Below are positions 7,127-8,179 of a stretch of 64,000 nucleotides of DNA, piece after piece. The stretch lies in assembly GCF_024700885.2 (NCBI RefSeq), contig NZ_CP117016.1. One strand, 5' to 3'. The first letter of the stretch is position 1, and each line of letters opens with the position of its first letter. The translations under genes were made by a program, and so were the position numbers. Below the pieces are notes generated by a model. The model ran no database searches and was not told the DNA's origin. It worked only from the letters and a program-made list of their open reading frames with translations. The DNA is from Escherichia coli. Lineage in GTDB: Bacteria; Pseudomonadota; Gammaproteobacteria; Enterobacterales; Enterobacteriaceae.

Positions 7127-8179
7127 ATGAAAAATACTGTAAAAATAAACAGTGTTGATTTAATCAACGCTGATTGCCTGCATTTTATTCAGTCCCTGCC
7201 TGATGATTCCATTGACCTGATTGTTACCGATCCGCCGTACTTCAAGGTGAAACCCAACGGCTGGGACAATCAGTGGAAAGGGGACGAAGATTACCTTAAG
7301 TGGCTGGACCACTGTCTGGCCCAGTTCTGGCGGGTGTTAAAACCTGCCGGAAGCCTTTACCTGTTCTGTGGGCATCGCCTGGCATCTGATATTGAGATCA
7401 TGATGCGTGAACGTTTCAACGTGCTTAACCATATCATCTGGGCGAAGCCGTCCGGACGTTGGAATGGGTGTAATAAAGAAAGTCTGCGCGCATATTTTCC
7501 TGCCACAGAGCGCGTTCTGTTTGCTGAACATTACCAGGGGCCATATCGCGGCAAAAGTGACGGCTATGCAGCAAAAGAAAGGGAACTCAAACAGCACATA
7601 ATGGCACCGCTGATATCGTATTTCAGGGATGCTCGTGCCGAACTGGGTATAACGGCAAAACAAATTGCCGAAGCCACAGGTAAGAAAAATATGGTTTCCC
7701 ACTGGTTTGGTGCCAGTCAGTGGCAGTTGCCGAATGAGGCTGACTATCGGAAGTTACAGGCACTGTTTTCCCGTATAGCGGCAGAGAAGTTTCAGGAACA
7801 ACAACTGGAACAACCACACCACCAGCTGGTGGCATCTTATGATTCACTGAATCGTAAATATTCTGAATTGCTGGATGAGTTTAAATCTCTCCGGCGCTAT
7901 TTCTCCGTATCAGTCTCCGTGCCTTATACCGATGTCTGGATGCATAAACCCGTTCAGTTCTACCCGGGGAAACATCCGTGTGAGAAACCGGCGGATATGC
8001 TCAGGCAAATAATCAATGCCAGTAGTCGACCTGGTGATCTGGTTGCTGATTTTTTTATGGGATCCGGTTCCACAATAAAAGCAGCAATGGCGCTGGGGCG
8101 TCGGGCCTTAGGTGTTGAGCTTGAGTCAGAGCGGTTTAACCAGACAGTGAAAGAGATAAACGAGCTGGTGGGGAAATAA
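7127..8179 (+). CDS. DNA methyltransferase (N6-adenine/N4-cytosine class, beta-type), orphan
   Basis: Motif IV DPPY (IVTDPPYF) near N-terminus and motif I FxGxG (DFFMGSGST) near C-terminus; no adjacent restriction endonuclease gene. Confidence 0.7.

Follow-up and report, generated by a model that had tools for sequence, protein, structure and literature searches.

The window analysed here is a 64-kb stretch of Escherichia coli DNA (64,000 nucleotides of contig NZ_CP117016.1), and the subject of this report is a methyltransferase gene in it, together with the leader directly before that gene. Judged from its sequence, the region is a lambdoid prophage whose late-control part is essentially like that of phages Ayreon and mEp460. 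We propose, with a probability of roughly 0.8, that the gene encodes a functional orphan N6-adenine methyltransferase of the M.EcoGII family, that it is expressed late and in dependence on the antiterminator Q, that it methylates the phage DNA before packaging, and that its leader most likely sets or gates its translation. The two features concerned are as follows.

7127-8179, + strand: orphan beta-class N6-adenine DNA methyltransferase of the M.EcoGII family, 350 residues from an ATG start, assigned by open reading frame (ORF) listing, profiles and a structure model

6986-7114, + strand: conserved structured leader RNA, matched by covariance model R1 with 131 bits and an E-value of 1e-35

In itself the gene is ordinary: it adds an allele to a known family which has already been characterised biochemically, is sold as a reagent and is catalogued in E. 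coli methylome papers. How do phages keep an enzyme in check that methylates every adenine? So far this has been explained only as a switch-off in the lysogen. The covarying leader, seen only with M.EcoGII-family genes, gives a concrete and testable handle on the taming, and it may be a new regulatory RNA class in the well-studied enterobacteria.

The assignment of the enzyme starts from its motifs. The initial annotation, made from the letters alone, had described a 350-residue ORF with DPPY near the N-terminus and FxGxG near the C-terminus, and the translation of 7127-8179 bears this out: DPPY occupies residues 35-38 (within IVTDPPYF), and F-x-G-x-G is FMGSG at residues 310-314 (within DFFMGSGST). 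Its placing among the amino-methyltransferases is also sound, since motifs, Pfam and fold agree on the beta class. The Pfam search gives N6_N4_Mtase (PF01555) over residues 29-341 with 145.9 bits where the cut-off is 26.7 (E 2.2e-42); such agreement between motifs and profile is far beyond chance. PF01555 is the sole Pfam family on the protein. A match to the D12 class (alpha-class, PF02086, Dam-like) is absent, and a Dam-type GATC methyltransferase is thereby ruled out. The protein also matches PHROG 'DNA methyltransferase' families (E 1e-102). Among relatives of solved structure, M.BceJIV comes first by sequence (E 3e-24), then RsrI, MboIIA and CcrM, which are beta-class N6-adenine enzymes. 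An AlphaFold2 model made from 44 homologues has a predicted local distance difference test score (pLDDT) averaging 78, and Foldseek with this model again ranks M.BceJIV first (E 6e-16), followed by CcrM, MboIIA and RsrI. The motif order is that of the beta class, with DPPY, the target-recognition domain and FxGxG in succession. Helices are modelled in the middle of the protein at residues 146-173, 177-184, 191-194, 204-220 and 231-254, where pLDDT is 80-92; the model thus has a helical target-recognition domain (about residues 160-237) and long helical linkers, as PMC11551740 describes for M.EcoGII.

Is the gene still maintained? The ratio of nonsynonymous to synonymous substitution (dN/dS) is 0.07 against the allele of phage SfV and 0.09 against that of a phage carrying Shiga toxin 2a (Stx2a), where dS is 1.36 and synonymous sites are near saturation. 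Across the 44 homologues (48-82% identity) 95 residues are invariant, and DPPY and FMGSG are both unchanged in every one. The low dN/dS and the invariant residues indicate strong purifying selection, that is, a gene that is maintained and not decaying. A small hairpin, ACTGT-N10-ACAGT, lies in the first codons (7139-7158) and is kept in most homologues with a long N-terminus; it could be a coding constraint or a piece of the initiation region.

The comparison with M.EcoGII gives the enzyme its likely activity. By BLASTP the protein is identical to M.EcoGII at 281 of 349 positions (81%) over the full length, and its identity to the reconstructed ancestors is 88% for Anc291, 86% for Anc289 and 70% for Anc284/SUPREM; the sequences of M.EcoGII and the ancestors were machine-read from Table S1 of PMC11551740 with visible reading errors, and these identities may be off by 1-2%. 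By region, the catalytic N-terminal part is 89% identical to M.EcoGII, the target-recognition domain 77%. M.EcoGII is a sequence-non-specific adenine methyltransferase from a prophage of E. coli O104:H4 (C227-11), which modifies adenines in any DNA context and in RNA too (Murray et al. 2018, PMC5778455). The lysogen does not express it, and its expression retards growth (PMC5778455); silence of such prophage methyltransferases was also found by reverse-transcription PCR (PMC4659465). The reconstructed ancestors all methylate both DNA and RNA, and a motif preference is absent in M.EcoGII, Anc291 and SUPREM (PMC11551740). In methylome papers, prophage genes of this kind appear as 'non-specific, inactive under laboratory growth' (PMC4659465, PMC6602927). 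This comparison and this literature make the window gene a member of a known, characterised family. The initial annotation had left the target as N6-adenine or N4-cytosine; the amino class stands, and the kinship with M.EcoGII and Anc291 narrows the choice to N6-adenine. By analogy with these relatives, the enzyme likely methylates adenines with little or no sequence specificity.

The family is widespread. Over the 1053 nucleotides, DNA identity is 100% to Ayreon, 99.9% to JJ1886, 99.4% to mEp460, 99.1% to cdtI and 97.0% to orf48 of SfV. The identical gene of Ayreon is annotated as 'putative DNA methylase', and the counterpart in JJ1886 (sequence type ST131) is WP_000799656.1. Of 5426 complete E. 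coli genomes, 1264 carry the gene (615 with an identity of at least 99%), and the exact protein is a member of a 4060-member cluster. At least many Stx2a-converting phages among the matches listed keep only about the last 34 methyltransferase codons, 82-85% identical, for example Stx2-converting phage 86 (NC_008464.1, 59743-59841). Breakage seems to recur at this gene, with Q, tRNA and stx modules being exchanged there.

What, then, lies directly before the gene? The 130-150 nucleotides upstream are far better conserved than synonymous sites, and no Shine-Dalgarno sequence was found before the ATG in the E. coli alleles. For the comparison, 240 loci with methyltransferase homologues were taken from viral contigs. 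A leader element of 123-133 nucleotides, ending 12-25 nucleotides before the start codon, is present in 219 of them in 72 distinct versions. An unfitted MAFFT alignment of the element has 85.6% of cells paired, compared with 36-46% for slid partners, and 14 pairs changed on both sides. Covariance model R1, built from this alignment, has a single match in the window, while the reverse strand gives 14 bits. Run on related loci from 88 sources, the model finds one copy in each of 68, in every case immediately ahead of the methyltransferase gene and on its strand; the others are almost all members of a sub-clade lacking the leader. As a check against circularity, one genome per bacterial species was searched with a degenerate pattern of the leader core alone. 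This gave 42 matches, of which the model confirmed 39, and the three others (a Lacticaseibacillus and two metagenome bins) were set aside as chance. An M.EcoGII-like gene starts 14-35 nucleotides downstream, on the same strand, in 37 of the 39 confirmed copies; one of the remaining two has too little flank, and one stands before a truncated gene remnant. The latter is in Rosenbergiella australiborealis (L286, 1149-1451), where an intact leader (87 bits) is followed by a 53-residue methyltransferase remnant without DPPY, the only confirmed leader with enough flank that lacks an intact methyltransferase. The hosts comprise about 20 genera of Enterobacterales, and a Vibrio phage and an N15-like phage carry copies scoring 76 and 58 bits. 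In this broader set 90.1% of cells are paired (slid partners: 30-44%), both sides have changed in 23 of 30 pairs, and none of 500 shuffles reaches the observed values; the alignment was fitted to the model, which favours structure, the unfitted alignments agree with it, and the null consists of shuffles and slid partners. On this covariation in the alignments, the leader is very probably a real conserved RNA structure.

Has such an RNA been described? In Rfam 15 there is no match at E <= 0.1 over 5000-10500, and over 6960-7140 there are only two spurious ones, with E-values of 1.3 and 8.2. The region carries no annotation in the GenBank/RefSeq records of Ayreon, SfV and JJ1886, and no description was found in the full-text literature on the core sequence, on M.EcoGII or on RNA motifs near prophage methyltransferases. 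The small RNAs of prophages in enterohaemorrhagic E. coli (EHEC) were considered and rejected as counterparts of the leader, for they lie elsewhere, downstream of inserts near the holin.

The pairing of the leader falls into two constant hairpins and two alternative sets of helices, all on the + strand.

7004-7015/7023-7034, + strand: hairpin P1a, constant in both folds
7075-7081/7088-7094, + strand: hairpin P3a, constant in both folds
6998-7003/7039-7044, + strand: helix P1 of fold A, 97% paired, with changes mostly via G-U
7069-7074/7097-7102, + strand: helix P3 of fold A, two covarying pairs
6999-7003/7070-7074, + strand: helix P0 of fold B, invariant and 100% pairable
7036-7044/7056-7064, + strand: helix P2 of fold B, five covarying pairs
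7095-7101/7115-7121, + strand: helix P4 of fold B, four covarying pairs

Folds A and B are mutually exclusive, as P1 and P2 share 7039-7044, and P3 shares 7070-7074 with P0 and 7097-7101 with P4. In the Vibrio phage, P2 has matching 2-nucleotide insertions on both strands of the helix. The minimum-energy fold of 6990-7135 is fold B (-57.1 kcal/mol, z -3.84), in which energy prediction adds a closing helix of GUGAA (6992-6996) with UUCAU (7124-7128), so that the first two bases of the start codon are paired. Conserved stretches without pairing, GGUCACAAGCGAACC at 7052-7066 and GAGCCUAYCA, look like junctions in RNAs that bind a ligand or a protein. No terminator and no clear stem sequestering a Shine-Dalgarno sequence was identified in the leader. 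Joining the P1a loop (GGUAG) to CUACC at 7102-7106 as a pseudoknot did no better than shuffles. Just ahead of the start codon, UGAUU (7121-7125) might pair with GGUCA (7052-7056): 85% of cells are pairable, compared with 20-45% for slid partners, while the covariation is not significant, the observed value being reached in 48 of 500 shuffles. TGATCYATG, with a GATC Dam site abutting the start codon, is what most family members have here, and it may pair with the same GGUCA; the window has TGATTCATG at 7120-7129, and the Serratia clade uses the ATG of ATGATC as its start codon.

The lack of a Shine-Dalgarno sequence, the multi-helix leader with two exclusive folds, and the start codon paired in the minimum-energy fold together suggest that the leader sets or gates translation. 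Most likely the leader controls how the methyltransferase is translated, and it may do so as a two-state switch. More tentatively, and with a little less confidence than doubt, we suggest that it is, taken on up to the start codon, an undescribed, dedicated class of cis-regulatory RNA for M.EcoGII-family genes, a two-state switch that holds translation of the toxic enzyme off or low until the right lytic moment. The trigger could be a metabolite such as S-adenosylmethionine (SAM) or S-adenosylhomocysteine (SAH), a phage protein, or methylation of the RNA by the enzyme itself.

The small ORF upstream of the leader deserves a separate look. Of 238 related loci, 193 have a member of its family (phrog_331) no more than 250 nucleotides upstream of the methyltransferase. 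ORF and leader are separable, with the RNA alone at 45 loci and the ORF alone at 21, and an obligate partnership like that of Com is rejected as a general rule on these counts. In SfV the small ORF is only 51% identical, against 98% for the methyltransferase with a near-identical leader, which points to a recombination junction at about 6985-6990. The sub-clade without the leader (L125, L128-L133, L135-L139, L141-L146, L149, L151, L152) is 62-65% identical to the window protein; its upstream region is shorter and keeps a P1a-like hairpin alone, after a small-ORF homologue.

When would the gene be expressed? Its neighbours in the window are as follows.

2862-3251: RusA (Pfam and PHROGs)
3271-4080: KilA-N protein (Pfam and PHROGs)
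4082-5077: DUF968/HNH nin-region protein (PF06147, E 3.5e-81; HNHc_6, E 4e-6, a C-terminal HNH-like motif)
5091-5843, + strand: late antiterminator Q, 250 residues when read from ATG 5091 (the mechanical ORF opens at GTG 5049; PF03589, E 9.6e-54; phrog_127 'anti-termination protein Q-like', E 2.7e-108)
5875-5903, + strand: candidate pR'-like late promoter, TTGCAT-17 nt-TAAGAT, 32 nucleotides past the Q stop, by inspection
5950-5976, + strand: intrinsic terminator, tR'-like, copy 1, AACCCGCCACTGAGCGGGTTTTTTT, annotated at the equivalent place in Ayreon and SfV
6124-6549: lipoprotein-like ORF of 141 residues (phrog_4748, no Pfam match)
6627-6652, + strand: intrinsic terminator, copy 2, past the lipoprotein insert, from the terminator scan and annotated in Ayreon
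6773-6976, + strand: small ORF of 67 residues from ATG 6773 (mechanical ORF from 6749; phrog_331, E 3e-26; no Pfam match)
8186-8210, + strand: intrinsic terminator between methyltransferase and holin, GGCCACGTCAGGTGGCC followed by TTTTTATTT, from the terminator scan and annotated in Ayreon and SfV
8247-8462, + strand: P21-type holin (Pfam Phage_holin_2_1, E 2e-35; PHROGs agree)
8462-8959, + strand: endolysin, a lysozyme (Pfam Phage_lysozyme, E 1.5e-45; PHROGs agree)
8944-9423, + strand: Rz (Pfam Phage_lysis, E 4e-29), with Rz1 embedded at 9176-9382
10239 onward: terminase (Pfam and PHROGs)

The initial annotation had placed the gene between Q and the lysis cassette, in the late operon, and so it lies: Q ends 1.28 kb upstream and the lysis genes span 8247-9423. 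The gap from Q to the methyltransferase holds the promoter-like site, two terminator copies, the lipoprotein insert, the 67-residue ORF and the structured leader. Q is likewise annotated in Ayreon, SfV and JJ1886, the stretch from Q to the terminator is conserved in SfV, and the order in all three is Q, terminator, small ORF, methyltransferase, terminator, holin. Beyond them, homologues stand directly upstream of holin or endolysin genes in a Serratia phage (64% identity), an N15-like Ravinvirus (57%) and a Vibrio VHML-like phage (48%), and a lysis gene starts within 400 nucleotides downstream in 62 of the 66 close relatives with enough flank. This place directly before the lysis genes in lambdoid, N15-like and VHML-like phages suggests a need to make the enzyme at the latest possible moment. 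The insert is an AT-rich segment of 677 bp (GC content 0.33-0.41) flanked by an exact 24-nucleotide direct repeat of the terminator, at 5950-5973 and 6627-6650; SfV has one terminator and no insert in the equivalent region. It looks like an extra gene (a 'moron') placed at the terminator, which was thereby duplicated.

The description of the gene as an orphan also holds. Among ORFs of 40 or more residues from about 4 kb upstream to 5 kb downstream, Pfam and PHROGs reveal no restriction endonuclease, and a Type II restriction-modification system is rejected since its cognate endonuclease gene is not among the neighbours. The only nuclease-like neighbours are RusA and the DUF968/HNH protein; the latter was rejected as a restriction partner, being a standard nin-region gene beside Q in SfV, the Stx2a phage and JJ1886. 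Nor does the 64-kb window hold tRNA genes, which flank the methyltransferase in Stx phages. The promoter scan listed no sigma-70-like site at 6977-7126 that could serve as the gene's own promoter.

Antitermination by Q at pR' is established lambdoid biology, and the anatomy of the region gives the following scenario. In the lysogen, transcripts from the late promoter would end at the tR'-like terminators, and therefore the toxic enzyme would not be made. The location of the gene in the prophage late operon is observed; its silence in the lysogen we infer from the three terminators and from the missing promoter-like site at 6977-7126. Upon induction, RNA polymerase modified by Q would pass the terminators at 5950, 6627 and 8186, and the methyltransferase would appear alongside the lysis and morphogenesis (head) proteins. 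The leader RNA would add a further layer by setting or gating its translation. Replicated phage DNA would then be methylated just before packaging, and progeny DNA would enter the next host already guarded against adenine-sensitive restriction of Types I, II and III; the price would be exposure to nucleases dependent on N6-methyladenine (m6A). An anti-restriction benefit is the view of PMC5778455 and of the review PMC12707154, and by analogy the window enzyme probably protects progeny DNA, as the initial annotation had held possible.

Are there other explanations for the enzyme? It might be a sequence-specific N6-adenine (or N4-cytosine) methyltransferase that guards against one particular restriction system. 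The closest site-specific relative, M.PflMI (CCANNNNNTGG), falls into the family's sequence cluster (PMC11551740), conservation against M.EcoGII is lowest in the target-recognition domain, and the NCBI protein name is 'site-specific DNA-methyltransferase', though this is an automatic label. However, the window protein is closer to Anc291 than to M.EcoGII, and it is bracketed by M.EcoGII, Anc291 and Anc284, none of which yielded a methylation motif; methylome studies (PMC4659465, PMC6602927) handle M.EcoGI, M.EcoGII and their homologues throughout as non-specific, while DPPY and the top structural neighbours indicate N6-adenine. We thus regard a specific enzyme as unlikely. Or its main target might be RNA, or host or phage gene expression, so that it would be an epigenetic or epitranscriptomic regulator and packaged DNA would be beside the point. 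M.EcoGII and its ancestors do methylate RNA in vitro (PMC5778455, PMC11551740), the gene would be co-expressed with late mRNAs, and invariant unpaired adenines are abundant in the leader, which would permit feedback by methylation. But M.EcoGII works about 100-fold less well on RNA than on DNA (V0 0.12 and 11.1; PMC11551740, Table S3), expression only minutes before lysis would leave little time for regulation, and a gene silent in lysogens could not set heritable host states. This explanation is the least probable of those weighed here. The 'epigenetic regulator' offered as an alternative in the initial annotation is unlikely for kindred reasons, with terminators between the late promoter and the gene and with relatives that are silent in lysogens.

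The conserved 130 nucleotides, in turn, might be no regulatory RNA at all, and represent a leader peptide gene, a DNA-level site (for a promoter, recombination or protein binding) or an independent small RNA. A short frame always begins at 6998 with ATG, GTG or TTG, a terminator often stands directly before the element as at the start of a separate unit, and the 5' boundary of conservation coincides with the mosaic junction. Yet the frame itself varies from 4 to 58 residues, with early stops and frame shifts, and a leader peptide is rejected on that ground. Conservation tracks base pairing, with the 23 pairs changed on both sides, and many of the G-U pairs would be A-C mismatches on the opposite strand, which is reflected in R1 scores of 131 bits on the + strand and 14 bits on the other. 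No sigma-70-like site was found within the leader, and the element is always on the same strand as the methyltransferase, 14-35 nucleotides from its start. Taken as a whole, such a reading of the 130 nucleotides is improbable, only slightly less so than RNA as the main target of the enzyme.

Several points weigh against our proposal of a late, non-specific and leader-gated methyltransferase. No published demonstration was found of hypermethylated virion DNA or of better plating on restricting hosts, and protection is the literature's own inference. The activity of the window allele is predicted from relatives, and with about 20% of positions different from M.EcoGII and 77% identity in the target-recognition domain, a gain of specificity is possible. 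The regulatory role of the leader is putative, its link to the start codon coming from an energy prediction and a weakly covarying pairing. The full leader is absent in 21 of the 240 related loci, so that it is not indispensable. Finally, the promoter at 5875-5903 was called by inspection and conservation only, and the consensus scan did not list the site.

How does the system compare with known ones? Like the cis-regulatory leaders and riboswitches of Rfam, the leader has a 5' untranslated position, conserved junction nucleotides, covarying stems and alternative pairings; unlike the riboswitches, it is matched by no Rfam 15 model even at E 10. Among those Rfam leaders is the D12-methyl motif, which lies upstream of Dam-class phage methyltransferases. 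The non-specific adenine methyltransferases Hia5, Hin1523 and Nma1821 of Mu-like prophages (Drozdz et al. 2012, PMC3299994), and Mom of Mu, parallel the window enzyme in its predicted function, being phage-encoded, late, broad in adenine modification and toxic if mistimed, with a proposed role in countering restriction broadly. The set of a small ORF, a structured leader and a toxic modifier in the window resembles that of Com and Mom of Mu. Translation of Mom is gated by an mRNA hairpin, which the small upstream protein Com opens, and the product of Mom is N6-carbamoylmethyl-adenine, not m6A. The small ORF of the window differs from Com in that it is without the zinc-finger cysteine pattern and is not an obligate partner of the leader RNA.

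The nearest comparisons are within the family. M.EcoGII and M.EcoGI have the same beta-class architecture and length (349-350 residues), and are likewise prophage-borne orphans. About 70 substitutions separate the window protein from M.EcoGII, and non-specific activity is ascribed to the window allele by analogy. The M.EcoGII-type alleles of Stx2 phages stand in the same arrangement downstream of Q, with small ORF, leader and methyltransferase in a row; the difference is that tRNA genes, stx2 and other inserts lie between the methyltransferase and the lysis cassette in those phages, whereas the window has a terminator only. In Ayreon, mEp460, cdtI, SfV and JJ1886 the methyltransferase has the same neighbours as in the window and nothing material differs, the lipoprotein insert being common to the window, Ayreon and JJ1886 and missing from SfV. 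On every feature examined, the window methyltransferase is a member of the M.EcoGII family and is like M.EcoGII in its predicted working.

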